Notes: generated from the letters alone by a model not told the origin. Shown: positions 1 to 28,522, counted from the first letter of the stretch. The stretch: 40,328 nt of DNA from Bacteroidaceae bacterium (GCA_017963785.1 JAGCTG010000032.1:1-40328); one strand, 5' to 3'. Program-made: numbers and translations.

Positions 1-160
1 CATATAACACCTTTTTGTATCGCTGAACCCACACAGACAGTAAACTTGTGCAGGTAAGACCGTACTTGCGAGTAATTTCTGCAACACTCGCATCTGTCTC
101 GCAATACTCGCGAACGATACGCAATCGTTCCTCCATTGAAAAATTAAAACTTCTTTTCAT
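1..160 (-). mobile_element. N-terminal fragment of an IS3-like transposase OrfA (helix-turn-helix), truncated by the window edge
   Basis: Hand translation of the reverse strand from the ATG at 160-158 gives MKRSFNFSMEERLRIVREYCETDASVAEITRKYGLTCTSLLSVWVQRYKKVLY. The ERLRIV...SVAEI..KYG....L..W pattern is typical of IS3/IS911 OrfA HTH proteins. The ORF runs off the left edge. Confidence 0.5.
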
Positions 161-314
161 AATTTATTAACATTTTTATGAAGAGAAAGTGTAAAGGTTT
201 TTCAGTATAAGACATTCGAGCGCGCGAGGCGCACCAGCCTTAATTATGTCTCCGCGCGTACCGAACCTTATTAAATATATTATGTGCAAGCGCGAGTATT
301 ATAATGGCAATAGA

Positions 315-348
315 AAAAGACTGAGGGTAAGGGTGCTCTCAGTCTTTT
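315..348 (-). terminator. Bidirectional rho-independent-type hairpin downstream of the island operon
   Basis: aaaagactgag (315-325) pairs perfectly with ctcagtctttt (338-348) around a 12-nt loop. A/T runs flank both sides, so a U-tract follows the stem on either strand. It lies about 105 nt downstream of the stop at 454. Confidence 0.6.
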
Positions 349-453
349 GGGTATTCTTTTTAGGAAGGGTTATTCTTTGTTGTAGTATAAGGGATATTGC
401 AGCCTGCAAAATGAGCTAGAGGCCGAAATTATAGAACCGGCCAATAAGAACAA

Positions 454-687
454 CTATTCTTCTTGCTCCTTCACTAGCAAATCCCAATACTTATTTGCCT
501 CTTCTTCAGAAGTATAATGCCCAGATTCGTCCCCAGTAAGCTTAACTCTAATACTGTATGTGCCGTCTTGTTTTTCGTGCATTTCGTATCGGTCGTTTTG
601 TTTAACAATACGAAATGATGCTTCAGTGCTGGGGTCTGGAAGTTCTGCACGCAAATTCTTTTTGAAATTGTCAGTGTTGTTTGCCAT
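454..687 (-). CDS. Small acidic cytoplasmic protein (77 aa), no recognisable family; last gene of the island operon
   Basis: ORF track. No signal peptide; acidic C-terminus (SEEEANKYWDLLVKEQEE). Co-directional with, and 74 nt downstream of, the preceding gene. Confidence 0.55.
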   Translation of the reverse strand: MANNTDNFKKNLRAELPDPSTEASFRIVKQNDRYEMHEKQDGTYSIRVKLTGDESGHYTSEEEANKYWDLLVKEQEE

Positions 688-761
688 AATCTTTATTTTA
701 AGTTATCACTATTTATTGTGAACAAAATTTTTCGTATTGAATAAGTATCGGAAGAATCGCG

Positions 762-2483
762 TTACTCGGAGAGGGCGAGGCGGAGACCAAATATGGAGGT
801 AATGTACGTACCTTCACTGACGTGGCGTTTAGAGGTGTGACATTCTGTGGCATAATTTGTCCAGCAGCCACCACGAACGATGCGGCAAACGCCGGATAGG
901 GGACCTGTAGGATTGGTTTGTGCATTAGTACTGTATTTTTCATACCAATCCTGACACCATTCCCATACATTGCCACTCATGTCGTATATTCCTAGTTCAT
1001 TGGGCTGCTTGGCTTTTACAACATGTGTTCCATAATCAGGACTTGATTTTTTCATGCCATATACTGCATTGCCGAAATACCATGCTACAGCGTTTATGTC
1101 GTTACTGCCAGCAAACCTATATCCACGACTCATATTACCGCCACGAGCAGCATACTCCCATTCCGCCTCGGTCGGAAGTCTGAATTGTTGTCCGGTTAGT
1201 TGGTTGAGCTTGCCGATGAACTTCTGGCAGTCCACCTTACTGACTTGTTCTACTGGTCGTTGCATCGAACCGACATTCTTCTTAGGAGCGAACTTAGAGG
1301 GATTCGTACCCATCACAGTCTTCCACAGCTCCTGCGTTACCTCTGTCTCGCCTATATAGAAGCTGCTCAATGTAACACTGTGAACAGGCCCCTCTTCGAT
1401 GTTACCATCCTCGCTGCCCATCTCAAAAGTGCCACCTTCGACAGCAATCATTGTAAAAGAAACACCATTGACGGTAAAAGTTAAATTGTTATCAATTTTA
1501 TTGCTTGTTGTGTTTATATTTATATTGGAAACCCCTGTAGACGATTCAATCATTGCTCCATCCACTTCGACAGTTTGGTCCTCTGCTAAATCTACAACTT
1601 TTGTAAGGTCGGTGTAGCCTGTCTTGCGGATAGTTATATTCCGTCTCCCTACCAGAACCTCTTGTAGGAACATAGGGGTGTCGCCAACTTTCTTTTCGTC
1701 AATGAGAATGTCGGCACCATCGGGTATGACGGAAATATTCAGACTGCCATAAATGGGGATTGGAGCATGAAGTTTTATCTTCTGATCTTCTGATATTGTA
1801 TATACCTCCGACTGCGTTTGATGGCTAGTCTTGCGAGTTTCTATCTGATAGGTGCCGTGCTCCAGAGTGCCAGTCCAACTGCCAAATCCTTTACGTTCTC
1901 CGTTAACCCATATTTCGGCATTGCCGTCCACGTTGAGCGTAACATTGGCCGAGTTGGAGGAGAGTGAGGCTTTAACAGTTGTCGTTTCACCATCTTTTAC
2001 TGTTACCGTTTGCTCAAAAGGCGAGTACAGTGGTTTTACTACGCGTATGCTGTGTTGTCCACTTGCTACCTTTCTAATGGTTAGCGGCACGATACCCTCT
2101 AGTTTGTTGTCAAGGAATACTGATGCTCCAGCTAGCTCTTTTGTTTCGGGAATCTCTATCGCTCCAAATGCAGGACGCATGGTAATGCTGATGACATGTT
2201 TGTTCTGAGGGTCATTAACGGTAATTTTTCCAATTTCGGAGTGATAGCCGTCCATATCCACACGATATTCGTAGGTGCCGAATTTCTTTCGTTTTATGGC
2301 CGTTCCGCCAACCACCTCCAGATTCTCCCCGTCAAGCATTATTATAGGATTTCCGTTGGGCTGAATCTGAAAGACCACATACTGCGATTTGTCATTGCCT
2401 GTCATGTCGTTATGCGCTTTAGACGGCATGGATAAGACAAACACAAATAATCCAAAGATTATATTTGAGAGAAAAAGGCGCAT
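762..2483 (-). CDS. Exported PEGA-repeat protein with one C-terminal FGE-sulfatase (SUMF1/GldK-like) fold domain
   Basis: Signal peptide: MRLFLSNIIFGLFVFVLSMPSKA. PEGA motif: SVIPDGADILIDEKKVGDTPMFLQEVLVGRRNITIRKTGY. FGE-fold motifs, about aa 335-572 (nt 765-1481): GGTFEMGS, FYIGETEVTQELW, RLPTEAEWEYAARGG, NELGIYDMSGNVWEWCQDWY, RGGCW, FGLRLAL. Confidence 0.85.
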   Translation of the reverse strand: MRLFLSNIIFGLFVFVLSMPSKAHNDMTGNDKSQYVVFQIQPNGNPIIMLDGENLEVVGGTAIKRKKFGTYEYRVDMDGYHSEIGKITVNDPQNKHVISITMRPAFGAIEIPETKELAGASVFLDNKLEGIVPLTIRKVASGQHSIRVVKPLYSPFEQTVTVKDGETTTVKASLSSNSANVTLNVDGNAEIWVNGERKGFGSWTGTLEHGTYQIETRKTSHQTQSEVYTISEDQKIKLHAPIPIYGSLNISVIPDGADILIDEKKVGDTPMFLQEVLVGRRNITIRKTGYTDLTKVVDLAEDQTVEVDGAMIESSTGVSNININTTSNKIDNNLTFTVNGVSFTMIAVEGGTFEMGSEDGNIEEGPVHSVTLSSFYIGETEVTQELWKTVMGTNPSKFAPKKNVGSMQRPVEQVSKVDCQKFIGKLNQLTGQQFRLPTEAEWEYAARGGNMSRGYRFAGSNDINAVAWYFGNAVYGMKKSSPDYGTHVVKAKQPNELGIYDMSGNVWEWCQDWYEKYSTNAQTNPTGPLSGVCRIVRGGCWTNYATECHTSKRHVSEGTYITSIFGLRLALSE

Positions 2484-2528
2484 ATTGTTGAATCTAGAAA
2501 AAAGTTTTTACAGAAGGAGCTTTATAAC

Positions 2529-3272
2529 TCATTCCAATTTAATGTATTCTTTTATTATAGGAATAAGTGCATCTGATGCCTCTGATGTAAACCGGGGAGA
2601 TTGGCAAAAGAACACAAAGTCGAAACTTGTAGGAGTTTGCCAGGACGAATAGTCTTCAACATGGTAAGGTATTTCTGGTTCTATCCAGTTTACCTTTTTG
2701 ACTAAATCGGGATAACGTATAAAATCATCTATTACTATTCCATCCTTAACCGTCGGAATCTGCAGCATTTCTCCGTTTTCGTTAAAATCTTTATGAAACA
2801 TGGGCGTTCTTGTTGAAATATGCCATCTTTTACTTTTGTCGGTAATAAAAAATACGCTATTTAGCTTTTGATATGCAAGCAACATACCTACCACATTTCC
2901 TTCTGACATATGGTCTTTAATAACGGTAATTCGTTCTTCAACCGGACAGGACATAAGGTTTATAATATTGCATACAAAACATTTTTTACCAGATGCACTT
3001 GGATGTAAATCATCATGTGCATCAACATGATATAAATTGATGTTATCAAATCCTTTTTCCACTATGACATTGAACAATTGGTCATGCGTTTTTGCACAAC
3101 AACCGATAATAGGGTTGGTTTTATTCAGTCCACATTTTTTCTCTAAGAAACTACGTACATCACGTTCTGCCCACGGCCAGAAGTCGTCGTCAGATAGTCT
3201 TTGCTTGTTGCCGTCATAGTCATAATAAACATCATTTTGGAAGAAATCTAAATCGAGGTCTAAAATGTTCAT
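2529..3272 (-). CDS. Cytoplasmic UPF0489-like protein (arginase/deacetylase-superfamily-like metal-site motif)
   Basis: No signal peptide. N-terminal MNILDLDLDFF and a later LYHVDAHDDLH resemble the UPF0489 family, which is thought to be related to arginases (DAHxD-type motif). Assigned from motifs only. Confidence 0.4.
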   Translation of the reverse strand: MNILDLDLDFFQNDVYYDYDGNKQRLSDDDFWPWAERDVRSFLEKKCGLNKTNPIIGCCAKTHDQLFNVIVEKGFDNINLYHVDAHDDLHPSASGKKCFVCNIINLMSCPVEERITVIKDHMSEGNVVGMLLAYQKLNSVFFITDKSKRWHISTRTPMFHKDFNENGEMLQIPTVKDGIVIDDFIRYPDLVKKVNWIEPEIPYHVEDYSSWQTPTSFDFVFFCQSPRFTSEASDALIPIIKEYIKLE

Positions 3273-3341
3273 ATGTTACTAATGTATCTTATGGGTTATT
3301 TGATGAGACCTGCTGATGCGGATGCACGGTGAAAGCAGTGT

Positions 3342-6176
3342 TTAATATGCTTTTTTTGAGAGTGCTAGACGGAATCCAAGTGTGCCGCCTTTAGGTATAT
3401 CTTTTTTTGAAGAAACCACAAAACAATCATACAAGTTAGAGTCATACGCACCGCCACGACATGCTCCATTTTCGCACATCTCCCATACATTGCCACTCAT
3501 GTCGTATATTCCTAGTTCATTGGCCTTTTTAGACGCTACTCTATGAGTCTCTCTGTCTTCCATTACATTTACATACCCACCCCCGGCGCGATTTGAATGA
3601 TAGCGTTTCATCACGCCACTATTGCTATAAAACCAAGCAACTTCATCAACACTGTTACTTCCGCTATGCATATAGCCTTGGGTTTTGTTTCCGCCTCGAG
3701 CAGCAAATTCCCATTCTTCTTCTGTTAAAAGACGGAATGATGCTCCTGTAATCTTGTTCAGTTTGGTGATGAATTCCCGGCAATCATTCCAACTAATACT
3801 TTCTACTGGAAGATAATAGACTCCCTGATTCAGACTCGAATCACGTTTGCTTCCCATAACTGCATCCCATAATTCTTGAGTAACTTCTGTTTCACCAACA
3901 AAGAAATCATTAACTTTTACCAGTTGTACGGAGCGAATCGTGTCCTCATTTTTCTTTTTCTTTTCTTTTTGCTCTGGCATCGCGCCCATTAAGAACTCTC
4001 CGCCTTCTACTGGTTTCATTTTAAAATATACATTGTTGGTAAAATAAGTGTCCTTTACTAAATAAGTGCAATCTTCTAAAGGGTCTTCTGGCATTGACAT
4101 AGCAAGACGTAATCCTAAATCAGGAACTTTTATATCGACATCGCAGCCTGACGACCCAAAAGGCTGACCTTCGTCTAGCGCAACTGGGCCTGTATTATTA
4201 TATGCCCCACCACGTCTAGAGGCAATGTATTTAGAGATTTGGAAATCAATGTTATAGCCTTTATCATACCAATTAAGGCACCATTCCCATACATTGCCAC
4301 TCATATCATATATACCTAACTCATTGGGGTATTTCGTGGCAACTGGTTGTGGTTTATGTGAAGAGTTCCAGCTAACCCAACATACAGAGTCTGGATAATT
4401 ACTACCACTACATTTATAGCCATGTGTTTTCTTTCCGCCGCGGGCAGCGTACTCCCACTCTGTTTCCGTAGGAAAACGAAATTTTCTCCCTGTAATTCGA
4501 TTTAACATGTAAATAAATTTTATGCAATCATTCCATGAAACAGAATGAACCGGCAAATTGTCTCCTGTGAATTTGCTGGGATTAGTGTCCATCACCGCTT
4601 TCCACAGGGCTTGTGTTACTTCGGTTTGCCCGATACAGAAACTTTTAACTGCAATATCTTCTTTTAGGTATCCACCTTCCACTTCAATCATTTTGAATGT
4701 AACGCCATTAACAGAAAACACATCCTCTAATTTTTGCAGAAAATTGAATGTGTTTGTTTTATCGGCAGTTACGTTGATTGTCTTCTCCAAATCTTTGTAT
4801 CCATTTGCCGTAATACGGATGGCGTGCTCTCCATAGCCAAGGTCATAAGTGGACGCTATCTTTCCTTTACTCTCTCCATCTATAAAGATAGTGGCATTGG
4901 GATTGTTACACTCAAATGTAACAGTCGTGCTTTGTGCAAGGGAACCTGACACCTCTACGGTCTGACCTTCTGTTAACTCCACTCTCCGCGTTAAGTCTCC
5001 ATAACCTGATTTGTGGACTGTAACAGTATGTGTTCCTATCAATACGTTGCTGAGAGTAAGCGGTGTTTCGCCTCTCTTCTCTCCATCTACAAAGACTTCG
5101 GCCATGGCGGGGAGCGTGCTGACTTCAAGACTGCCAAAAATTGGCGTAGGGGCTGGCAGCGAAATAACCACCTGCTCTTTGCTGACAGATAAGGACTTGT
5201 TGACATGTGAAGGACGGTGATTCTCGGCCTTCGTCTCAAATTCATATTCCCCTGTGCTTAGATTGCCACTCCAGCTGCCTTTGCCTTTCATTTCGCCATT
5301 AACCCATATTTCTGCATTATTGTCTACTGTAAGTTTTACATTGGCGAAATTAGCACTCAGTTCGGGAGATAATTCTGCCGTCTTATTATCTTCGATGGTT
5401 ATTTGTTGCTGCCAATTGCCATATAGGGACTTTACTATCCTGACGGTATGGGTGCCACTGGCCAGCTGGCCTGATTTGCATGGCACGGTGCCTATCTGCT
5501 TGTTGTCAATAAAGACGGTACCTCCGCGGTTGGACTCATTAGCCTTAATCTCTACCCATCCAAAGGCAGGAAGTAGCTTTACATCTACTACCACCTTGTT
5601 AGTAGGGTCACTCACGCTAACCTTACCCGAAGAAGAGTGGTAGTCCTTGGCTTGCACTGAATAAGTATAGTCGCCAAAAGGCACAAACTTGCGTGCAGAT
5701 CCTCCATTGTTGTTCCATATCTCGCCCTCGACCTCCACGATGGCATCTGCAGGTGTTACGTTAAACACGAGGTACTGTGACGTCTGCAGCTTCTTCGTGC
5801 CTTGTTTGGGTAATTCAGGAGCTGTTAATTTAACTCTATATACACACTTTCCTTCAATAGGAACAGTAAAGACTATTTCTCCAGGCAAATAATCTGCATG
5901 ACGGAAAGAAATCTTTTTAGTTCCTGCGGGTACATATACTTGATACTCGCCTGGCTTGTAGCCTGCTTTGCCTACGACCCATCCCTCGAACTGCATGCCT
6001 TGTACGGATGGCAGTACGACACGAATAAGAGCACACGGATTGCCATTAGCATCCAATCGAGGATTGGTGCGAGCGGCAAGATCGTTTTCCAAAAACTCAG
6101 TCTCTGACACCGCAATCTCTTGGCTATAAGCAAAGAGAGAGAGAAATAAAAATATTACAGAAAGTATTTTTCGCAT
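3342..6176 (-). CDS. Large exported protein with multiple PEGA-like repeats and two tandem FGE-sulfatase-fold domains
   Basis: Signal peptide: MRKILSVIFLFLSLFAYSQE. PEGA motif: STLPAMAEVFVDGEKRGETPLTLSNVLIGTHTVTVHKSGY. FGE-fold domain 1, about aa 487-694 (nt 4095-4718): FPTETEWEYAARGG, NELGIYDMSGNVWEWC. Domain 2, about aa 714-940 (nt 3357-4037): GGEFLMG, LLTEEEWEFAARGG, NELGIYDMSGNVWEMC. The module order parallels the 573-aa paralog. Confidence 0.85.
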   Translation of the reverse strand: MRKILSVIFLFLSLFAYSQEIAVSETEFLENDLAARTNPRLDANGNPCALIRVVLPSVQGMQFEGWVVGKAGYKPGEYQVYVPAGTKKISFRHADYLPGEIVFTVPIEGKCVYRVKLTAPELPKQGTKKLQTSQYLVFNVTPADAIVEVEGEIWNNNGGSARKFVPFGDYTYSVQAKDYHSSSGKVSVSDPTNKVVVDVKLLPAFGWVEIKANESNRGGTVFIDNKQIGTVPCKSGQLASGTHTVRIVKSLYGNWQQQITIEDNKTAELSPELSANFANVKLTVDNNAEIWVNGEMKGKGSWSGNLSTGEYEFETKAENHRPSHVNKSLSVSKEQVVISLPAPTPIFGSLEVSTLPAMAEVFVDGEKRGETPLTLSNVLIGTHTVTVHKSGYGDLTRRVELTEGQTVEVSGSLAQSTTVTFECNNPNATIFIDGESKGKIASTYDLGYGEHAIRITANGYKDLEKTINVTADKTNTFNFLQKLEDVFSVNGVTFKMIEVEGGYLKEDIAVKSFCIGQTEVTQALWKAVMDTNPSKFTGDNLPVHSVSWNDCIKFIYMLNRITGRKFRFPTETEWEYAARGGKKTHGYKCSGSNYPDSVCWVSWNSSHKPQPVATKYPNELGIYDMSGNVWEWCLNWYDKGYNIDFQISKYIASRRGGAYNNTGPVALDEGQPFGSSGCDVDIKVPDLGLRLAMSMPEDPLEDCTYLVKDTYFTNNVYFKMKPVEGGEFLMGAMPEQKEKKKKNEDTIRSVQLVKVNDFFVGETEVTQELWDAVMGSKRDSSLNQGVYYLPVESISWNDCREFITKLNKITGASFRLLTEEEWEFAARGGNKTQGYMHSGSNSVDEVAWFYSNSGVMKRYHSNRAGGGYVNVMEDRETHRVASKKANELGIYDMSGNVWEMCENGACRGGAYDSNLYDCFVVSSKKDIPKGGTLGFRLALSKKAY

Positions 6177-6191
6177 TAAAATACAAAGTCA

Positions 6192-7229
6192 TTAAATGTC
6201 AAAATCGCTTAGACTGAATATCTCGTCTTTGGGTATGCGTTGCGTTCCCTTACCATTAGAGTTATAGGCATCGGGCTGCCATGTACGCACATGTATCTGA
6301 GGATGCTCTTCGTCGCGGAAGTCCCATAAGAGGAAGACATAGCCGTCATCATGATAACGATCAGAAGTGTAGCCTTGATGAAGGGTCACTCCGTAAAAGT
6401 CTTTGTTGACAGGATGACGCATCACTTCAATCTCATCAAAGGTGACGCGAATCATCCTATTATTGGCAAAGACACGCTTGAGGTTAGTCAGGTACTCCTG
6501 CTTACTTTGTTTTTTATACACGATTTTGTCCGGTAGACGTATGCCATCGCCCGTTTTACGTTGAATCACTCTACCCGTGATAATGAGGGCATCGTCGCTG
6601 AACACTGCCTCGAGGAAATCAATGTCTTTTTGATTGTAGGATGTACGAAATTGCTCTACATAATCAAGTATAAGCTGACGACGACGCAGGTCGGTAATTT
6701 CCTTGTTATCACGGATGACATTCATGTAGAGGTTCATACTGATAGACAGGTAGAATGAAACAAGATTACCTTGTTTGTCGAAGCTAACAACTGCCTCCTG
6801 ATAATCTTCATCTTCTGCAATGTCGGAAGGATTAGTCGGCTTGAGCAATATCGGAATATTCCTAACTTGGTAACCGGTGCCGGTAGTCAGACAATGCTCA
6901 ACTATCTCAGTATCCATACTTACAAACGGAGAGTTTTCCCAGAGAGACGCAAGTGCACCTTGCACTGAAGAAGGAATGCCGAGAGCAGAATAGTTCATCT
7001 GTCGCTTTCCTTCATAGGCAGCATTTGCTTCAGTAAGGATAGTGGCAATAGTCTGCTCCATCTTTGTCTTGATTGCAACATTGTCAATGCCATCAGTCAG
7101 TTGTACTGTCACTCTATCTGCAGCTTTGACTGCAAATGATAGCATCATCATTGAGATGCTTAATAATGAAAGTTTGAGATATTTCATAGTTGTATGTTTA
7201 ATCTTTTGTCTTAATCCATATTGCTCCAC
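6192..7229 (-). CDS. Exported hypothetical protein; C-terminal half possibly NTF2/SnoaL-like
   Basis: ORF track. The start is more likely the internal ATG at 7187 (MKYLKLSLLSISMMMLSFAVKA is a signal peptide), which removes the 32-nt overlap with the upstream gene. The C-terminal DIDFLEAVFSDDALIITGR...VTFDEIEV...YGVTLHQ pattern weakly resembles NTF2-like folds. Confidence 0.6.
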   Translation of the reverse strand: MEQYGLRQKIKHTTMKYLKLSLLSISMMMLSFAVKAADRVTVQLTDGIDNVAIKTKMEQTIATILTEANAAYEGKRQMNYSALGIPSSVQGALASLWENSPFVSMDTEIVEHCLTTGTGYQVRNIPILLKPTNPSDIAEDEDYQEAVVSFDKQGNLVSFYLSISMNLYMNVIRDNKEITDLRRRQLILDYVEQFRTSYNQKDIDFLEAVFSDDALIITGRVIQRKTGDGIRLPDKIVYKKQSKQEYLTNLKRVFANNRMIRVTFDEIEVMRHPVNKDFYGVTLHQGYTSDRYHDDGYVFLLWDFRDEEHPQIHVRTWQPDAYNSNGKGTQRIPKDEIFSLSDFDI

Positions 7230-7992
7230 ATCCCTTGTAGTTGCTTATCAAATCGGGGGTGCCAGTCTTCAGGTTGATACAGGTTTCGCCTGCGACTTTC
7301 AAGCAGGCTGGTATTTCGCCTTGCTTATTGTGAATGAACACATACACAGCATCTGTTGTCGGCAGATTGGAATACTTACCAACCTGCGTGATTGTCCCGT
7401 TTTTTCTACCTAGGTTGACATATTCGTTTAGTGCCGTAAATGTCTCAACAGCCAACATCTCTTGTTCTTTTTGCGTCGGAGTATAGGCTGTAGAAATTAT
7501 ATCCTGTTTTTCCGTTTCCTCAACACTCTCATTCATAGGTGTTGTCACTATTTCATTAGAGGCAGTAGTGTCAGCGCTGGCTACAGGAATAGCATTAATT
7601 GCTACCGAGTCCGTGGTTTGCCCTGGTTGTCCAAAGTTAACGACCATCACTTCTTCTTGCTTATAATACGGGAGGATGTCGATCTTGTTTACATACGCGA
7701 AAACACGATAAAGCCTGCCGCGCTGCGTGCTTATCTGCGACAAAGACTCCTTAGACTTGGCTACATATCCTGCTATACTATCAACAGAGCACTCTTTTAG
7801 CCATTGTTCTATCTCTAACGCCAAAAGGTCTTTGGCATTGTTGGAGGCCTCTTCACTACTGACAGAGGATGTGCCAGTAGCATAGATAAAACTGATATTG
7901 CGCTTAATGTCATTGATTTGCTGTTGCTCATTCTGGGCAAAAGCAAATCCTACGCAAGTCATAAAGACTAAAGTCAAAAAATACCGAATCAT
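7198..7992 (-). CDS. Exported hypothetical protein (264 aa), no recognisable family
   Basis: Signal peptide: MIRYFLTLVFMTCVGFAFAQ. The start overlaps the upstream stop as ATGA (7989-7992), suggesting translational coupling. Confidence 0.6.
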   Translation of the reverse strand: MIRYFLTLVFMTCVGFAFAQNEQQQINDIKRNISFIYATGTSSVSSEEASNNAKDLLALEIEQWLKECSVDSIAGYVAKSKESLSQISTQRGRLYRVFAYVNKIDILPYYKQEEVMVVNFGQPGQTTDSVAINAIPVASADTTASNEIVTTPMNESVEETEKQDIISTAYTPTQKEQEMLAVETFTALNEYVNLGRKNGTITQVGKYSNLPTTDAVYVFIHNKQGEIPACLKVAGETCINLKTGTPDLISNYKGCGAIWIKTKD

Positions 7993-8972
7993 ATCTTCTT
8001 CTTTGGTTTTTTTATGTATTGTTGATACAAGTCTTTAACATTGTGTGTCGGGATATAGGCATTAAGTGTTGCCTTGAAAACTGAACGGGGATTAGAAACG
8101 AAGTTATCAGGGATTATGATGGAGAGCATATGATTGAATCCTAGGTCTTTACTCTGAGCTATCAGCAAAGCCTTTAGCCCGTCTTCACGCTCTTCTTCTA
8201 TGGCAAAATACACCTTCAGTTTCATCGCCTGACAATATGCTAACCACTGCCATAGCGGTATGCTATATTGCTTTTTGGCTAAGCCATAAAGATTCTGCTC
8301 GATATATAGAGTATAGCCTGCAATACAAGTACTGTCAAGACAACTCTGGAAGAGATTGGCAGCAGAACGCCACTTATCACTATCGTCAAAGATGGGCAAC
8401 AGACTATCAGTTTGCGACAGCCGATAGTATGTCGCATCATTAAAAGACTCTACGTAAAGGTATTGTACATTCTGATTCGTATAAATACTGTCGGGCTGTT
8501 CGTGCAAGTATTGTCTGTCAACAAGATAACAGTTGTACAGAGAAGATTCCGCAAGTGTAGTATTAAAGGTTTTTTCTATATCTACCTTGGGCTGCCCAAG
8601 CAGTAACTCGTACTGCATAGGAAAGGCAAGGTCAAGAACAACATTACCAAGAGTGTCAGACCATGAAACTTCATAGAACTTGTCCTCTGTCTTACTGATA
8701 GTAAATGTCATCTCCTGAGTTATATGTGTAGCAGAAGAAGCATTGCCTGTCACAAACAGAACTTTATCGTCACGTAGGCGTTGGTCGACAGCAATATGTT
8801 TCTTCTGGAGGCTATCAATCTCGAAAAGATACCTCTCTAGGAAATCATAGACAACAGAAGGGTATGCAGTTTTCATTTCCGGAGGAAACAGGACAAACTT
8901 CTGTGCCGAACAGATCTGTACAGCCAACGCCACACACAACAATAAGGACAATGCGATCTTCTTGCTCATCAA
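7989..8972 (-). CDS. Exported hypothetical protein (327 aa), no recognisable family
   Basis: Signal peptide: MMSKKIALSLLLCVALAVQICSAQ. Lies 33 nt downstream of the MORN gene on the same strand. Confidence 0.6.
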   Translation of the reverse strand: MMSKKIALSLLLCVALAVQICSAQKFVLFPPEMKTAYPSVVYDFLERYLFEIDSLQKKHIAVDQRLRDDKVLFVTGNASSATHITQEMTFTISKTEDKFYEVSWSDTLGNVVLDLAFPMQYELLLGQPKVDIEKTFNTTLAESSLYNCYLVDRQYLHEQPDSIYTNQNVQYLYVESFNDATYYRLSQTDSLLPIFDDSDKWRSAANLFQSCLDSTCIAGYTLYIEQNLYGLAKKQYSIPLWQWLAYCQAMKLKVYFAIEEEREDGLKALLIAQSKDLGFNHMLSIIIPDNFVSNPRSVFKATLNAYIPTHNVKDLYQQYIKKPKKKI

Positions 8973-9005
8973 ATATATTATATATAGATAAGGTATAGTC
9001 GCGTA

Positions 9006-9722
9006 CTACTTGGAATCGTAGCTACTTTCAGAACCTACGCCAAAGTTGAGGCTTTCCAATAGGTTTCCTGCAGAGTCATAATGTTTGCCATATACCACAA
9101 ATCCATTATAGAACTCGCCTATTACATAATCACCCGCATCAGCTGTACGTCCCTTCATGTCGTTACGATTAATCTGACGTGTAGTGGTATAGGTGAGCCG
9201 GCCTTGACCATGAGGATAGCCATCCTTAATTGCTCCGCTGTATTTACCGTAACTCAAACGTAGCGTCCCATTGCTCTGCGCAGGTGCTGGTGAAGGTACA
9301 GGAGCAGGTGCTGCATTCTTTACTATTACCTTAGTACGAGTATCCTTAATGGTATCGTGCACTACCACAGTATCTTTTTTCGCAGGAGTATCTGCTGCTT
9401 CTTTAATTAAGGTGCTGTCAACAGTAGTAGTATCAGAAGCTACCGCAAGTTCCTTCTTATCGGAAGAGCCGCTAAAAAGTTTTGTGCAGAGTAAGACAAT
9501 TGCTGCAACAGCCAGCAATGCGATAATTGTCCACAGTATTTTTTTGTTTCCTTTCTTGGGAGGAGGACATTTGCGCAACTCTTTTCCGCACTCGGAGCAA
9601 ACAAAGTCTCTTCGCATTGAGACTTGCTGCACTTCCTTGGTTTTACACTTTGGGCACTCATCATTCAGACAAATGCCGTATTGCATACGATTGCTGTCAG
9701 ACGGTCTAATATTTCTTGGCAT
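9006..9722 (-). CDS. Bitopic membrane protein: N-terminal zinc ribbon, one TM helix, Thr/Pro/Ala-rich linker, C-terminal MORN repeats
   Basis: CPKC...CSEC forms two CxxC pairs at aa 23-46. TM helix: ILWTIIALLAVAAIVLLCTKLF. MORN-like units: YSGAIKDGYPHGQGRLTY and YVIGEFYNGFVVYGKHYD. Confidence 0.7.
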   Translation of the reverse strand: MPRNIRPSDSNRMQYGICLNDECPKCKTKEVQQVSMRRDFVCSECGKELRKCPPPKKGNKKILWTIIALLAVAAIVLLCTKLFSGSSDKKELAVASDTTTVDSTLIKEAADTPAKKDTVVVHDTIKDTRTKVIVKNAAPAPVPSPAPAQSNGTLRLSYGKYSGAIKDGYPHGQGRLTYTTTRQINRNDMKGRTADAGDYVIGEFYNGFVVYGKHYDSAGNLLESLNFGVGSESSYDSK

Positions 9723-9758
9723 CTTTGTATTATTTTTCTATTTGACTAATATATTTTC

Positions 9759-12700
9759 TTACATTGAAGGAGGCATTGGCGGGGGCATGCTACCAGGTGT
9801 TGGAGGTGCTGGTGGTGTAACCGTAGGAGCAAACAGCCCCTGCAACTCAACAACTTGTGCTGCAGCAGTCCATGAAGCCATGCCCTGTTGCCACACCATA
9901 GTCTGTGGGGTTAACTGACCATTTGCCACAAACTGACGTAGTGTCGCGTAGTCATATGGTCCATATTGCTGGCCTCCAATATATAAAAACATTTGCACCT
10001 GCGGTTCTGCAGTTGGCATTGGCGGAGGCGTTGCTATTGTCGTCGTTTCTTTTATCTGTTGCTTTGATGGCGGAGGTGTTGCAGTCGTTGTCGTTTCTAC
10101 GCTCTTATTTGCTGCTTTGTCAACTACAAAAATACTTGGCAAGTCTTTTCCATCACCTTCTGTATGAAGAAGAATTGCATTTGTCACATCAGTTGCTCTG
10201 TTCCCTGTATGCAGGAAGTCCTCATACTTCTTCTTATATCCCTGCAGCCAATCTGCACATCGCATCGGGAAACAATAAGCTACCGTAATAATGGACAATT
10301 CATTGTCGCGCGGACTCTGAGTGTTAAATACTATATCGGTAATAGCTGTTCCCTGAGTAAAACTGCTCTTAAATGCTCTTTCTAGTTTTTCTGCAAATGC
10401 TTTCTGACTGTCGGTAGCAGGTTTAGGAATAGACACAAGCGTCACCTTCTTATTGATGCTAGCAGGATTAGACGGAGCCAATGGGCCTTCGTTGTTGCGA
10501 ACGTGAAGCTGTATCTGGTCATTGTTGAGCTTGAGGAACACCCCACTCTGCTGTGTAATCTTATATGCAAAGCTACGTATCTCTTCTTCTGTACTGAACT
10601 TCTGCTGAAGTTGGGTGAGGATATTCAATCCGAGTACTTTCTTATCAGCATCCGCCTGTTCATTATGCTTGGTGCGCACAATCTCACTGAGTTTTATGTC
10701 GAAAGCATCTCGAATCTGATCGATACTTATATCGGAAGCCAAACGTCCAAAATTAACGAACTCAGTTTGTGGCAAAATAGCAGTCCTTAACTGACTAGCG
10801 ATAGTGGGCATATCTGTCTTATCAAGTTTAAGCTCAACCTCAAAGGTCTGCATTGTTTCCTCTTCACTGACCTCAATGATTGGGCCTTTCATGTCTTCAA
10901 GGCCTTTGTTGACTTTCTTCTGCGCTGCAATAAGTTTTTCCGTTTCTTCAATAGCGGTGCTTATTACCTGACCAAAGGCACTAATGTCAATGTCCATATT
11001 TTGCAACTCGTTAAGGATCTTCGTTGCAAGTGATTTCGCAAATTGTAGGGCAACCATTCGAGTGCGCTCTGTATAGAAGTCGGCAAGATCGTTCTGGTGG
11101 CGACTATATATACGCTTTCCTACATTTGCGATACGCTTAATCAAGCTAAGATTGCTCCATTCTATAACATTATCTTTGCAATCCTGTTGTATAGCCGTTA
11201 CTGTTTCTGCATTCTTAATAATGGCATCGTCAATATGAGTGCGAATTTCTGTTATCTTCTCAAGAAGGAGAGCAGAAACCTTCTGGAGTTCCACAATAGA
11301 GATATCGCCGTCTTTCCATTTTTCAAAAAGCTCACGCTCTATAATTCCACGTATTTCTTTGGCCATATCGGGAATCGAATGTGATTTATCACGATAGAAC
11401 GCTTCAACTCCTACTCCACGGAATTGCTTTGCAAAATATTCCTCATTAAGAATAGCATCAAGTTCATTCAGTGGACATGCATCTTTGTTAAACGAAGGAT
11501 CATTAAGAGGATAACTTACTGCCTTATCGTGCCAATACTCTGAAAATGCAGGATGCTTCTTATCACTCTTCAGAATACGAGTATCGAGTGTAAGATGACG
11601 TTCGTCAAGCATCCAACGTTCCATGTTATTATCGTTGAGGTATGCCTCGCGATAATCTTTCTTGGCTTCTTCGTCAACATAACCCACTTCGTCACGCCAG
11701 TTATTATATTTGAATTGTAGTAGAACACTTTCACCTACAGTGTAAGTGATGTGTCGAAGAACGCGCAACTCTGGATACATAACACGCTTTACTCCGAAAG
11801 AATTAACCTTCTTAGTACGAGCCACAAGCTTTTGTGCGTTATCAATAATTGTATCATCGCCAAGTTCGTCATACTCCAAGGCGAAATCATCCATATTCTC
11901 ATAGGTGTAAGCGCGAATAATATCTGCATTCACCTGATCTTCAGAATTAATAAGGAAAGTCCTAGCATATACAAAATCACTAACGACCTTGGGTAATTCT
12001 TCGAAAGAATTCAAAGAATGGCCATTATCATTAACGTTGCTATATAGTGTTATACCATTGGCGACACCCTTTACACGGTCACTGAATACCTTTATCTCTG
12101 CTCCGTTTCCTGTTACATCGTGAGGATTAAAACGCCCTGCCTGTAGAGCATTTAGTTCACGAAGAGCAGCATAGCCGTTTTGATAGTAGCGCCCTTGATC
12201 CATATTAGCCTTGGGAAGATTCTGCTCTGGCATCATGGCGTATACACTAATTATTGCATCGGGATACAATTTGCGAGCTTGTACGATAGCATCGATTATG
12301 CTTCCGGAACCAGTACCACCGCAAAGCCCAGCAAAGATATGAATGTTCAAATCGCTGCCACCTTCCTTACCGGAAATCTTGATTATCCTAGCATAAGCAT
12401 TGCGCAAGGCATTAACATAGCCCACAGCATTAGCAGCAAACAAAAGACGACCAGCACGGCGCTTCTGCCCTGCTGCCTCACCTAAGTTGCCGATAGCAGT
12501 CTTAACAGCTCCTGCGTCTTTGATGATTCCTTTCACGCTAGGATAGTTATTGATATGGTCAAGCATATGACCAATATCTGTACTCTTTATATACAGGAAT
12601 TCGTCTTCCGTAAACGAGGCATCCTGACCCATAACGCGAAAATCTGGTCTTGGACGTCCGTCTTTTGGCATCATCTCTCGAGTAGAGTCGATGTATAAAA

Positions 12701-12842
12701 GAGCTACTGGTTGTTTGTTTCTGTCAGAAGACTCAGGAAATTCCTCAAACATTCGCATCTTGAACTCACGGAGGATCTTACCTCCAGTACCACCTAAACC
12801 AACAAGAATGTGATTTTGGCTACAAAAAGTCTTTGCCATCAT
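9759..12842 (-). CDS. Giant tubulin/FtsZ-superfamily GTPase (Tubulin_2 / FtsZ-like type) with proline-rich linkers and a C-terminal GYF_2 domain
   Basis: N-terminal glycine loop: ILVGLGGTGGK (aa 12-22). Tubulin signature: GGTGSG at aa 175-180 (nt 12303-12320, checked codon by codon). GEAAGQKRRAGRLLF precedes it. The C-terminal MFLYIGGQQYGPYDYATLRQFVANGQLTPQTMVWQQGMASWTAAAQVVELQGLF (aa 951-1004, nt 9831-9992) matches the GYF_2 consensus. That domain is flanked by ATPPP/PPMP tracts. Confidence 0.8.
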   Translation of the reverse strand: MMAKTFCSQNHILVGLGGTGGKILREFKMRMFEEFPESSDRNKQPVALLYIDSTREMMPKDGRPRPDFRVMGQDASFTEDEFLYIKSTDIGHMLDHINNYPSVKGIIKDAGAVKTAIGNLGEAAGQKRRAGRLLFAANAVGYVNALRNAYARIIKISGKEGGSDLNIHIFAGLCGGTGSGSIIDAIVQARKLYPDAIISVYAMMPEQNLPKANMDQGRYYQNGYAALRELNALQAGRFNPHDVTGNGAEIKVFSDRVKGVANGITLYSNVNDNGHSLNSFEELPKVVSDFVYARTFLINSEDQVNADIIRAYTYENMDDFALEYDELGDDTIIDNAQKLVARTKKVNSFGVKRVMYPELRVLRHITYTVGESVLLQFKYNNWRDEVGYVDEEAKKDYREAYLNDNNMERWMLDERHLTLDTRILKSDKKHPAFSEYWHDKAVSYPLNDPSFNKDACPLNELDAILNEEYFAKQFRGVGVEAFYRDKSHSIPDMAKEIRGIIERELFEKWKDGDISIVELQKVSALLLEKITEIRTHIDDAIIKNAETVTAIQQDCKDNVIEWSNLSLIKRIANVGKRIYSRHQNDLADFYTERTRMVALQFAKSLATKILNELQNMDIDISAFGQVISTAIEETEKLIAAQKKVNKGLEDMKGPIIEVSEEETMQTFEVELKLDKTDMPTIASQLRTAILPQTEFVNFGRLASDISIDQIRDAFDIKLSEIVRTKHNEQADADKKVLGLNILTQLQQKFSTEEEIRSFAYKITQQSGVFLKLNNDQIQLHVRNNEGPLAPSNPASINKKVTLVSIPKPATDSQKAFAEKLERAFKSSFTQGTAITDIVFNTQSPRDNELSIITVAYCFPMRCADWLQGYKKKYEDFLHTGNRATDVTNAILLHTEGDGKDLPSIFVVDKAANKSVETTTTATPPPSKQQIKETTTIATPPPMPTAEPQVQMFLYIGGQQYGPYDYATLRQFVANGQLTPQTMVWQQGMASWTAAAQVVELQGLFAPTVTPPAPPTPGSMPPPMPPSM

Positions 12843-12866
12843 ATTATAGTTATAAAATTATTGTAT

Positions 12867-12874
12867 CAAAGGTA
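12867..12874 (-). promoter_or_regulatory. Candidate Bacteroidetes -7 box (TACCTTTG) proximal to the tubulin-like gene
   Basis: The reverse complement of caaaggta matches TAnnTTTG and ends about 25 nt upstream of the ATG at 12842. The nearest TTTG (12901-12904) is 26 nt away, longer than the usual spacing of about 19-21 nt. Confidence 0.3.
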
Positions 12875-12957
12875 GTTAACAAATCATTCCCGCAATCCCC
12901 CAAACGAGTGTTGGTATTAGTGTGCACGAAAAAAGCGTAGGGATTTGTCCTTACTCA

Positions 12958-13126
12958 TCTTATTGCGGGTATCGCCAAACACCTTGTCAGAAATGAGTAT
13001 AACTTATCACCTACGCCGTATGCTCGAGCTACGGCGTAAGTGAAGCCGCATGCAACGTTGACATACATGCAAGGCGAACCGTATTCTATATCCTTCTGAC
13101 TTGAAATTGGCGATTTCGCAATAAAG
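12958..13126. repeat. Imperfect long inverted repeat (structured element) of about 170 nt in the mfd/island spacer
   Basis: Hand-paired helices are nested in order: 12960-12967 with 13117-13124 (8 bp), 12971-12978 with 13107-13114 (8 bp), 12986-12992 with 13094-13100 (7 bp), and 12995-13001 with 13087-13093 (6 of 7). An inner hairpin pairs 13007-13020 with 13030-13043 (9+4 bp, one mismatch; loop tgctcgagc). Confidence 0.55.
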
Positions 13127-13178
13127 GATAAAGCGCGGAACGCTTCTTCGGTCTCGGGATTTTTCCCCCAAGACGGTG

Positions 13179-13209
13179 CAAATATAATAAGAATTATTAT
13201 AATAGCAAG
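13179..13209 (-). promoter_or_regulatory. Candidate distal promoter for the island operon (-7 TATATTTG, -33-like CTTG)
   Basis: The reverse complement of caaatata (13179-13186) is TATATTTG, matching TAnnTTTG. CTTG (13206-13209) lies 19 nt upstream, which is canonical spacing. Use of this promoter would give a leader of about 330 nt containing the inverted-repeat element. Confidence 0.35.
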
Positions 13210-13334
13210 AAAATCGCCCTGATTTTCGTATAAAATGGAAAAGCGGGGCGAAGGTTTAAGGCCTTTCAGAATTTCTGAATACTCCGAATAGTAGGAAGAG
13301 TCAGAGGGGGATAAAATCGGGAATTTTTCCGCGT

Positions 13335-27888: not shown

Positions 27889-28289
27889 GGTGGACCAGGG
27901 GAGATTCGAACTCCCGTCCAAACAAGGAAGCCATGTGTTTTCTACATGCTTAGTCAGGCTGTGATTGTCTGTCCTGCAGCCGGAGCCCGACGGCCAACAG
28001 CGGGGCATATCCTCTGAAGAATTTCGCCCGAGGCGCGAGGCCGCCTCAAGCTATCCCCGATTTGCTGCGCCACTGAACCGGTACGCTTCGGAGAAAGAGC
28101 GACCGAGTGACGTCTCGTTCTGCGCCCTTGGCGCGGAATAAAGCAGTCCTACTGTACTTCAGACTAAGCTGCGAGAGCGTAGTTAGTTTCGCCAGATAAA
28201 TTTGTGAGTAGTTGCTTTTTAAGTGACTGCTACCAACGCACTGCATGCTTGCACACCTCTTGACCTCGCTGTCAAATCCAGTCTGGCCC
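27889..28289 (-). ncRNA. ssrA: tmRNA (SsrA), about 401 nt; tag GETNYALAA
   Basis: The 5' GGGCCAG pairs with the 3' CUGGUCC, including the G3:U identity pair. T-arm: GGGAGUUCGAAUCUCCC. The 5' region GACUGGAUUUGACAGCG resembles tmRNA consensus. Tag ORF: GGC GAA ACT AAC TAC GCT CTC GCA GCT TAG at 28164-28193. Confidence 0.92.
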
Positions 28290-28297
28290 AGGTATAT

Positions 28298-28325
28298 GTT
28301 CGAAAGTTCGAAGGTTCGAAAGTTA
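28298..28325. repeat. Octamer tract gttcgaaa gttcgaag gttcgaaa (gttaaccc) just upstream of ssrA
   Basis: Counted by hand. Lies between the GC hairpin (28327-28344) and the tmRNA 5' end. Confidence 0.7.
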
Positions 28326-28326
28326 A

Positions 28327-28344
28327 CCCCCCTTTGCAGGGGGG
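28327..28344 (-). other. GC hairpin (cccccc tttgca gggggg) between tRNA-Glu and ssrA
   Basis: Perfect 6-bp G:C stem with a 6-nt loop. Function is unclear; it could be a processing or termination element. Confidence 0.4.
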
Positions 28345-28353
28345 CTTTTGAGG

Positions 28354-28428
28354 TGGTAGCGCCTACGGGACTCGAACCCGTGTACCCGGCGTGAGAGGCC
28401 GGTATCCTAACCACTAGATGAAAGCGCC
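28354..28428 (-). tRNA. tRNA-Glu (anticodon CUC), CCA encoded
   Basis: Hand-folded cloverleaf: acceptor GGCGCUU/AGGCGCU (G1:U72 and U6:G67 wobbles), D-loop UAGUGGUUAG, anticodon stem CCGGC/GCCGG with loop CUCUCAC, T-arm ACGGG-UUCGAGU-CCCGU. Confidence 0.75.
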
Positions 28429-28435
28429 AAGGTTG

Positions 28436-28522
28436 CGGAAGCTAGGAGATTCGAACTCCTGGTACGGTTACCCGCACGGCAGTTTAGCAAACTGCTGGTT
28501 TAAGCCACTCACCCAAACTTCC
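28436..28522 (-). tRNA. tRNA-Ser (anticodon GCU) with long variable arm, CCA not encoded
   Basis: Acceptor GGAAGUU/AGCUUCC, anticodon stem GCAGU/ACUGC with loop UUGCUAA, long variable arm CGUGCGGGUAACCGUAC, T-loop GGAGUUCGAAUCUCC. Confidence 0.85.

Follow-up and report, generated by a model that had tools for sequence, protein, structure and literature searches.

Is a tubulin-superfamily GTPase of 1027 amino acids (aa), ending in a GYF_2 domain that is set between proline-rich tracts, an oddity of one genome or a member of a known family, and with what might so unusual a tail be engaged? The gene in question is found within 40,328 nucleotides (nt) of DNA from a Bacteroidaceae bacterium (GCA_017963785.1, JAGCTG010000032.1:1-40328), which as a whole is referred to here as the window. 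An initial annotation, made solely from that sequence, had described a tubulin-type GTPase fused to about 600 aa of helical region, proline-rich linkers and GYF_2, with the latter domain suggested to mediate either self-association of a polymer or instead the docking of a partner. The protein, as described in the following, is cytoplasmic and belongs to FtsZl1 (Pfam Tubulin_2), a branch of the tubulin/FtsZ superfamily. Already known are the FtsZl1 family, its ~1000-aa size and its long helical body; new here are a GYF_2/polyproline tail on an FtsZl1 protein along with the gene cassette in which that protein is encoded, one also specifying a Zn-ribbon transmembrane (ZnR-TM) adaptor and exported proteins.

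The minus-strand open reading frame (ORF), 9759-12842, is intact, beginning with ATG. Pfam Tubulin_2 (PF13809) matches aa 12-373 with an E value of 5.8e-50 and 171 bits versus a cut-off of 27, spanning model positions 1-354 of 356, and GYF_2 (PF14237) matches aa 952-1000 (E 9.9e-18; 64.1 bits versus 25.8; model positions 2-50 of 50). The classical Tubulin profile (PF00091) is sub-threshold, at 23 bits versus 33, and touches aa 164-208 only. Judged from these profile scores, the match of the protein to its family is far beyond chance. As a hydropathy scan of the 1027 aa found neither a transmembrane (TM) segment nor a signal peptide, the protein is taken to be cytoplasmic. Its database matches number more than 1500, and the best 120 of these are 62-85% identical, ~1020 aa long, and of identical two-domain content, with not one of the 120 bearing an informative name.

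The FtsZl1 family was set out in 2010 as consisting of proteins of ~1000 aa with an extended coiled coil and a mostly helical C-terminal domain (PMC2875224), and a later study equated 'FtsZ-like' proteins with Pfam Tubulin_2 (PMC9871819). The present protein shares with that family its ~1000-aa length and a plan in which a GTPase domain of FtsZ/tubulin type, bearing the GGTGSG signature, comes first and is followed by a long stretch of coiled coil or helix and then, at the C-terminus, by a conserved globular domain; shared, too, is the presence alongside of a normal division machinery. A HMMER search using aa 1-930 as query, with E up to 0.001, yielded 1173 clusters at 50% identity, and relatives of ~1000 aa align over query aa 9-906, i.e., over their whole length, down to 26% identity. 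Since such members align end to end, both the size and the ~600-aa extension are the FtsZl1 norm. The length which the initial annotation found unusual is real, that is, but is typical of FtsZl1/Tubulin_2 proteins rather than special to this one. The GYF_2 tail and its polyproline linkers, on the other hand, are without description in the family, and literature on Tubulin_2, GYF and Bacteroidales, or on tubulin-type defence systems, provided no account of the present architecture or operon.

A full-length AlphaFold2 model, built on a 73-sequence alignment, has a mean predicted local distance difference test score (pLDDT) of 89.7 and a predicted template modelling score of 0.80. Its sole disordered parts, aa 912-944 and 1008-1027 (pLDDT below 50), are the two proline-rich tracts. 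Searched with Foldseek against the PDB, the model's top matches are from the tubulin superfamily only: CetZ (3zid) with E of 7.5e-7 over 348 aligned columns of a 360-residue chain, and BtubB, TubZ/RepX, and beta- and gamma-tubulins over 365-390 columns with a probability of 1.00. Because these alignments cover nearly full target chains, a whole two-domain tubulin fold is expected within ~aa 1-385, and as modelled that fold is complete. Profile and predicted fold therefore agree on tubulin-superfamily membership, as had first been proposed, and the fold is tubulin-like rather than of a P-loop or other kind. The structures closest to predicted aa 1-385 (3zid, 5o09, 4ei7, 2xkb and many tubulins) are those of CetZ, TubZ/RepX, BtubA/B and tubulin, and the T1, T3, T4 and T5 motifs are common to these and to the present protein. 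Identity nevertheless is merely 10-14%. The present protein, unlike these solved relatives, has large T2-T3 inserts, yields no FtsZ_C or Tubulin_C domain, and includes a 520-aa stalk-and-globular body which is without counterpart in the PDB.

The motifs that first suggested a tubulin, GLGGTGGK (aa 15-22) and GGTGSG (aa 175-180, nt 12303-12320), lie at precisely those positions in the translated ORF. Conservation was scored in 142 relatives of 23-86% identity. Within T1, N10, H11 and G15-G21 are found in 89-97% of these relatives, G15-G21 taken alone being at 90-97%, and within T2 so too are Y50 (92%) and D52 (98%). The T3-like segment has G125 at 76% along with Q126, R128, R129, G131 and R132 at 92-99%; the T3 of FtsZ, for comparison, reads GAGANPEVGR. 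Eight of the nine T4 positions from G172 to G180 are at 94-99%, and profile searches also align T4 to the signature of tubulin and of FtsZ. Then follow T5 (P205 96%, E206 75%), H5 (Y219 94%, N222 100%, Y224 95%), S6/T6 (S268, N269, N271, E/D272 and G274, 50-89%) and H7 (P284 85%, D289 62%, F290 63%). The nucleotide-contact loops T1-T6 thus are present and conserved in relatives. Directly past a predicted H7-like helix (aa 283-313) are E315 (94%), N316 (84%) and E323 (94%), a segment which resembles the T7/H8 pattern, N-x-D-x-x-E/D, of tubulin and FtsZ, and from which we infer that aa 314-323 may be the T7 region. This placement rests on predicted secondary structure plus conservation since sequence profiles stop at H3-S5; that is, phmmer and a family profile versus the PDB, as well as hhalign versus FtsZ and alpha/beta-tubulin sequences, aligned H3-S4-T4-H4-S5 only. 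The global mode of hhalign, as tried for mapping T7, gave a nonsense alignment and was set aside.

Between the GTPase and the tail is a body which initially had been described as helical throughout. That description holds for a stalk, aa ~386-650, whose predicted helices reach ~70 residues, but not for aa ~651-911, which are mixed alpha/beta and globular. Stalk and alpha/beta domain together (aa 386-911) are common to the whole ~1000-aa subfamily. The alpha/beta domain displays two nearly invariant motifs, FPxR (with R861 invariant) and LHxEGDGxxLPxLF (with H893, E895 and P902 at 90% or more), at aa 858-904 (nt ~10131-10271), these being among the family's best-conserved positions outside of the GTP loops. 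Modelled alone, aa 376-912 have a pLDDT of 86, and a fold search of that body against the PDB returned no significant match (best E 0.3). Low-probability hits of the body to ClyA-type pore toxins, SMC-like coiled coils and F-BAR domains are generic long-helix matches and those of the alpha/beta subdomain to FtsZ/tubulin C-domain and YjgF/RidA folds likewise are of low probability; none of these is taken as evidence.

The tail, as anticipated in the initial annotation, is predicted to be a folded GYF_2 domain, with beta-beta-alpha-beta elements, between two disordered proline-rich linkers, with PPP found at aa 923-925, 939-941 and 1020-1022 and the protein ending in ...PPAPPTPGSMPPPMPPSM. Among 122 GYF-tailed homologues, the 40 aa preceding GYF are on average 26% proline, and the C-terminal tail, with a median length of 22 aa, on average is 47% proline. 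A PPP-like motif is found past GYF in 117 of these 122, the usual end being PMPPTL/M. As both proline enrichment and PPP-like motif recur in these homologues, the proline flanks are a conserved feature. Of the 120 closest homologues, 119 have GYF itself, as against only 6 of 150 representatives at 50% identity, all six belonging to the closest clade (identities of at least 46%); one of the six, P0123, has a tandem pair of GYF domains. Elsewhere in the family, proteins stop at ~900 aa or have instead an unrelated helical domain of ~110 aa. The tail, consisting of polyproline linker, GYF_2 and polyproline end, thus is specific to one Bacteroidales clade. Orthologues at 53% identity, from Prevotella, Alloprevotella and Bacteroidaceae metagenome-assembled genomes (loci L008, L009 and L016), possess the helical tail within the same operon, and the tail is by such comparisons an exchangeable module, the rest of the operon being unchanged.

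What a bacterial GYF domain may bind had been described initially as not established, which is outdated. The GYF domain of Myxococcus GltJ binds a proline-rich sequence of AglZ, with micromolar affinity and via its beta-sheet, and a Zn-ribbon adjoins GYF in ~44% of the bacterial proteins with that domain (PMC11135422). Polyproline binding by the present tail is made more plausible by that known ligand. Further, the focal-adhesion machinery Agl-Glt of Myxococcus has in GltJ-AglZ a switch (Attia et al. 2024, PMC11135422) which, like the present locus, combines Zn-ribbon, TM segment, long coiled-coil protein and GTPase. Here, unlike with GltJ-AglZ, GYF and proline tracts are on the GTPase/coiled-coil protein and the Zn-ribbon is on a separate TM protein; the Agl-Glt GTPase, moreover, is the Ras-like MglA, whereas that found here is tubulin-like. 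The sole NCBIfam match of the protein is in fact the GltJ model (NF033761), to its GYF part, and at 26.4 bits versus a cut-off of 450 this indicates that the protein is not a GltJ orthologue. The window is devoid of other Glt or Agl genes.

The gene for the ZnR-TM adaptor begins 36 nt past the end of the tubulin-like gene (Table 1). All related loci long enough to show it have a ZnR-TM homologue as the next gene downstream, including those at 24-28% identity, i.e., L021, L022, L028 and a megaplasmid of Paraburkholderia, with the outer domain of ZnR-TM varying among MORN, Big_2 and He_PIG. The dyad of tubulin-like protein and ZnR-TM is conserved across phyla and is the most general partner relationship found. 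Of 15 loci with a GYF tail, 11 have CPPP or CLPP just ahead of the adaptor's TM helix, as against none of four non-GYF loci, an association for which a naive Fisher test, done by hand and on loci which are related to one another, gives ~0.02. Candidate GYF-ligand peptides are the adaptor's RKCPPPKKGNKK as well as the protein's own TPPPMPTAE and SMPPPMPPSM.

Table 1. Coordinates within the window of the tubulin-like gene, its parts, and the genes downstream from it
Feature	Coordinates (nt)	Strand	Basis
Tubulin-like gene, FtsZl1/Tubulin_2 with GYF_2 tail, 1027 aa	9759..12842	-	ORF, Pfam, hydropathy scan, AlphaFold2
Predicted two-domain tubulin/FtsZ fold, aa 1-385: nucleotide-binding domain, core helix H7, small C-terminal domain	11688..12842	-	Foldseek, Tubulin_2 profile
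T1 loop GLGGTGGK, aa 15-22	12777..12800	-	Conservation
T4 tubulin signature GLCGGTGSG, aa 172-180	12303..12329	-	Conservation, profile searches
Candidate T7 loop YENMDDFALE, aa 314-323, with E315, N316, E323	11874..11903	-	Conservation, AlphaFold2 helix 283-313
Stalk, aa 386-650, very long helices 479-510, 516-563, 574-640	10893..11687	-	AlphaFold2
Conserved alpha/beta globular domain, aa 651-911	10110..10892	-	Alignments, AlphaFold2
Proline-rich linker 1, disordered, aa 912-950 (TPPPS..., TPPPMP)	9993..10109	-	pLDDT <50 for aa 912-944
GYF_2 domain, aa 951-1005	9828..9992	-	Pfam E 9.9e-18, pLDDT ~90
Proline-rich C-terminal tail, disordered, aa 1006-1027 plus stop (...PPAPPTPGSMPPPMPPSM)	9759..9827	-	pLDDT <50
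Partner 1 (ZnR-TM adaptor), 238 aa: Zn-ribbon in the cytoplasm, CPPP (nt 9558-9569) beside the membrane, a single TM helix, and an extracytoplasmic domain that is MORN-like	9006..9722	-	Pfam, TM scan
Partner 2 (p327), 327 aa, signal peptide, exported, without known domain	7989..8972	-	Syntenic homologue in all loci reaching the position
Partner 3 (p264), 264 aa, signal peptide, exported, without known domain	7198..7992	-	Start overlaps preceding gene by 4 nt
Partner 4 (p345), ~331 aa from ATG 7187, exported, marginal NTF2-like (Cds6_C)	6192..7187	-	Pfam 28.2 bits versus cut-off 27
Cargo, 944 aa, exported, three PEGA and two FGE-sulfatase domains	3342-6176	-	Pfam, NCBIfam
Cargo, 247-aa orphan cytoplasmic protein	2529-3272	-	Scans, synteny
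Cargo, 573 aa, exported, PEGA and FGE-sulfatase	762-2483	-	Pfam, NCBIfam

Eight co-directional genes, running from 12842 down to 762 and separated by gaps of 15-69 nt or overlapping, make up the cassette as found here. The order of tubulin-like gene, ZnR-TM, p327, p264 and p345 is kept in every related locus extending far enough, including L019 at 41% identity; the loci from reference genomes all are from Bacteroidales metagenome-assembled genomes (Prevotella, Alloprevotella, Paludibacter, Muribaculum and Bacteroidaceae). Partner 4 is the best conserved of the partners, at 62-67% identity in L001 and L005 and with E of 2.8e-57 to its L019 homologue. Its mechanical ORF (6192-7229, minus strand) begins with a GTG which is 14 codons 5' of ATG 7187, and that ATG opens a typical signal peptide, MKYLKLSLLSISMMMLSFAVKA; ATG 7187 is the likelier start, as well as one which abolishes a 32-nt overlap with the preceding gene. 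PDB sequence searches with p345, p327, p264 and p247 returned nothing usable, and PADLOC, PHROGs and NCBIfam scans of the cassette named no system, with two sub-threshold PADLOC hits on the Zn-ribbon protein (E 0.002-0.006) regarded as noise.

The slot past the three exported proteins varies among loci, containing PEGA/FGE-sulfatase proteins, WG repeats, an LRR/EF-hand giant, Sel1/TPR proteins, or a conserved pair of 520 and 230 aa. In the window, two PEGA/FGE-sulfatase genes flank the 247-aa ORF, which has neither signal peptide nor family match, lies in a stretch of ~35% guanine plus cytosine (GC), and is without counterpart in related loci; its N-terminus, MNILDLDLDFF..., is reminiscent of UPF0489-type proteins. 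The three FGE-sulfatase domains have in common a DNA segment coding PNELGIYDMSGNVWEW, at 936-1004, 3456-3524 and 4260-4328, with ~45 nt identical between two paralogues and the 69-nt repeat copies otherwise being 72% identical, possibly reflecting gene conversion or strong constraint. A diversity-generating retroelement acting on this cargo was considered but is not supported: the repeats are the conserved core of paralogous domains, their mismatches are not A-biased, and there is no reverse transcriptase in the window. Elsewhere, at 27889-28522 on the minus strand and unrelated to the tubulin-like gene, a tmRNA gene (tag GETNYALAA) is followed by tRNA-Glu(CTC) and tRNA-Ser(GCT).

This context differs from those published for FtsZl1. 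The partners reported in FtsZl1 operons are a vWA protein, a divergent P-loop GTPase, an OmpA-like protein and a Ser/Thr kinase (PMC2875224), and none of vWA, P-loop GTPase, OmpA or kinase domains is found in the eight cassette genes, which instead specify the ZnR-TM adaptor, three exported proteins and PEGA/FGE-sulfatase cargo. Such partners belong to the context of the family rather than defining it, and OmpA does occur in a distant relative, L021. The 2010 tables have a sole true Bacteroidales entry, B. caccae BACCAC_02057 (913 aa), whose gene neighbours are different ones (PMC2875224).

With ~42% GC (42.5%) versus ~54% (53.8%) in the rest of the window, the cassette looks to have been horizontally acquired. 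The break in composition is sharp, at ~13,250, just downstream of mfd, and like drops in GC are seen at L005 and L027. The window begins inside of the low-GC block (1-13300 versus 13300-40328), that is, with the other end of that block outside of view. Insertion sites and flanking genes differ between genomes, the cassette being patchy in its occurrence. Directly upstream of the cassette in L014 (18-9162) are a SIR2-like/TIR protein, an nSTAND1 NTPase of 1189 aa, and two large exported or TPR proteins, a setting which looks like a defence island. A cluster in L019 (6724-21508), as well as in L020, has two Tubulin_2 genes (512 and 1030 aa) plus the core of ZnR-TM and exported proteins, ends with Trypsin_2 and TIR_2 genes, and adjoins a BT4734/VapE-like primase. 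That is the most defence-like version of the cassette.

Tubulin plus coiled-coil proteins have been placed in GTPase-centred conflict systems by Kaur et al. (2020), in company with Zn-ribbons, PEGA, NTF2, FGS (FGE-sulfatase), and sometimes GYF, trypsin and TIR (PMC7159879). These GAP1-N2 systems resemble the present cassette in having tubulin fused to a C-terminal coiled-coil or helical domain, along with Zn-ribbons, TM segments, extracytoplasmic PEGA or NTF2 domains, FGS, and occasional GYF, trypsin and TIR partners. Their hallmark, however, is GAP1 together with one or two TRAFAC GTPases bearing N-terminal Zn-ribbons and an FNIII-repeat component (PMC7159879), and no TRAFAC/P-loop GTPase, vWA or FNIII Pfam domains are found in the cassette; GAP1 is without a model in the libraries used and was not searched for. 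They come, also, from Firmicutes, Actinobacteria, Planctomycetes and related groups, rather than Bacteroidales (PMC7159879), and here GYF is fused to the tubulin-like protein itself.

From these observations a mechanism may be proposed. The protein would bind GTP and assemble via tubulin-like longitudinal contacts, with a conserved acidic residue, E315 or E323, serving in the T7 position, and the Zn-ribbon adaptor would keep it at the inner membrane. The flexibly linked GYF_2 tail would be an added docking device for capturing a proline-rich peptide, paralleling the engagement by GltJ's GYF of AglZ's proline-rich sequence; the likeliest target would be the adaptor's juxtamembrane CPPP, with the protein's own PPPMP tracts perhaps being competing or multivalent ligands. 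The cassette as a whole could in this manner couple cell-envelope events to a GTP-dependent cytoplasmic assembly, the sensors presumably being the exported, diversifying lectin or repeat proteins, and with a role in conflict or surveillance, i.e., toward phages or competitors, favoured over one in housekeeping. Taken in its entirety, from GTP-dependent assembly through adaptor anchoring and GYF docking to a trans-envelope conflict or surveillance role, this proposal is given roughly even chances of being correct.

A number of points weigh against it. The placement of T7 is tentative, with sequence profiles reaching tubulin in H3-S5 only, and an alternative T7 may be seen at aa 298-302, inside of an insertion specific to the clade. 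The co-occurrence of CPPP and GYF is phylogenetically confounded, and CPPP is missing from GYF-tailed loci of the Muribaculum type (L010-L012, L015). Because the adaptor neighbours the gene whatever the tail, the main contact between the two proteins probably is made by the conserved body rather than by GYF. Given related loci, Muribaculum-type loci lacking the motif, and an adaptor that is present regardless of tail, GYF-CPPP docking is a reasonable but weakly supported addition to such a primary contact. The eight cassette proteins, searched against PADLOC-DB 2.0, have no meaningful match to a defence model; TIR or trypsin genes occur in just 2 of ~15 independent loci; and known defence systems do not usually have nearly all of their components exported, as do the partners here. 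Lastly, a ~200-aa protein with three TM segments and an Arg-rich C-terminal tail is encoded immediately upstream in seven loci (L001, L007, L008, L011, L014, L016, L019), and tblastn finds no trace of it upstream of the window's tubulin-like gene, where 12843-13334 are 490 nt of non-coding DNA, so that the window's copy of the cassette may be incomplete or 5'-truncated.

A bolder version of the proposal, and one which we consider improbable, has a tubulin-superfamily polymer as the cytoplasmic switch or threshold of a mobile, trans-envelope immune system in gut Bacteroidales. Recognition of an external ligand, such as a phage or competitor, would fall to exported, diversifying proteins of the lectin-fold, LRR or Sel1 kind, the signal would cross via the Zn-ribbon/TM adaptor, and GTP-dependent FtsZl1 assembly would execute or gate a response, with GYF-polyproline docking fastening the FtsZl1 protein to the adaptor and with TIR or trypsin effectors carrying that response in some variants.

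Among alternatives to the conflict proposal, the likeliest is that of a housekeeping envelope machine, i.e., a tubulin-like filament which organises or powers a trans-envelope complex for membrane remodelling, for vesicles, or for the placement of surface proteins or adhesins. This is the original FtsZl1 proposal, with membrane remodelling inferred by Makarova & Koonin from membrane-associated neighbours (PMC2875224), and the machine would have its analogue in the Agl-Glt complex of focal adhesions or in lipoprotein rings of the GldJ/GldK type. Consistent with it are partners which nearly all are exported or membrane proteins, the weak similarity of the cargo's FGE-sulfatase domains to GldK/PorK and GldJ, and the mirroring of GltJ/AglZ by Zn-ribbon, GYF, proline-rich sequence and long coiled coil (PMC11135422). 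The cargo, however, has the FGE-sulfatase domain alone in common with PorK/GldK/GldJ, scoring far under equivalog level (96-103 versus 350 for TIGR03525, PorK-GldK; 41-55 versus 458 for TIGR03524, GldJ), just as the GltJ score (26 versus 450) is far under that family's cut-off. A cassette that is patchy, compositionally foreign, variously inserted and variable in its cargo also is a poor fit for a core envelope function, and TIR, trypsin or nSTAND genes are found in some loci. A housekeeping role is rated as rather unlikely.

Next is self-association, as the initial annotation had envisaged, by which GYF_2 would bind the proline tracts of neighbouring molecules of the same protein, giving rise to head-to-tail or lateral cross-linking, bundling or condensation, and with partner docking secondary. 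The ingredients are there, that is, proline tracts to both sides of GYF in nearly all of the 122 homologues and with a conserved end, linkers whose disorder would leave them accessible, a tandem GYF in P0123 which suggests multivalency, and a bacterial GYF that can bind a proline-rich sequence (PMC11135422). Such linkers could, however, be mere flexible spacers, and the flanks are proline-poor in L006 and L007. As sister orthologues whose helical tail lacks proline tracts function in an operon of the same kind, cross-linking by GYF is not essential to the machine. Partner docking fits the evidence at least as well as does GYF self-association, and the latter we judge to be unlikely.

More doubtful still is that the protein is a non-polymerising pseudo-GTPase or nucleotide-gated scaffold, with GTP as switch or structural cofactor and with stalk and tail making of it a monomeric or dimeric adaptor. 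T6-H7-T7 as well as a canonical C-terminal domain escaped Makarova & Koonin, who allowed for a lack of filaments (PMC2875224). In the AlphaFold2 model the C-terminal domain within aa 314-385 is small, and the query's clade has a 10-residue insertion, residues 296-305, in the H7/T7 region. Minus that insertion, helices 283-297 and 303-313 form a single helix of ~21 residues, which is the H7 length of tubulin and FtsZ. Foldseek aligns nearly all of CetZ and tubulin, C-terminal domains included, and near-invariance of T1-T6, together with 94% conservation of both acidic residues past H7, leads one to expect a catalytic inter-subunit loop rather than a dead enzyme. A protein of the plasmid-partition TubZ or phage PhuZ type, finally, is ruled out, as plasmid and phage collections hold one distant megaplasmid copy and no phage copies.

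Few tubulin/FtsZ branches are as deep or as divergent as FtsZl1, which has been known since 2010 and of which no member has been studied experimentally. The predicted whole tubulin fold points to a conserved acidic pair in the T7 position, one which the sequence analysis of 2010 could not find, and so supplies concrete residues, E315 and E323. With the ZnR-TM adaptor encoded downstream from Bacteroidales to Paraburkholderia, the family also has a first candidate binding partner and link to the membrane. The GYF-tailed variant, in turn, is present in abundant gut genera and groups, namely Prevotella, Alloprevotella and Muribaculaceae. Should the cassette prove to be a conflict system, then a cytoskeletal-type polymer would be in use in these bacteria for immunity signalling across the envelope.

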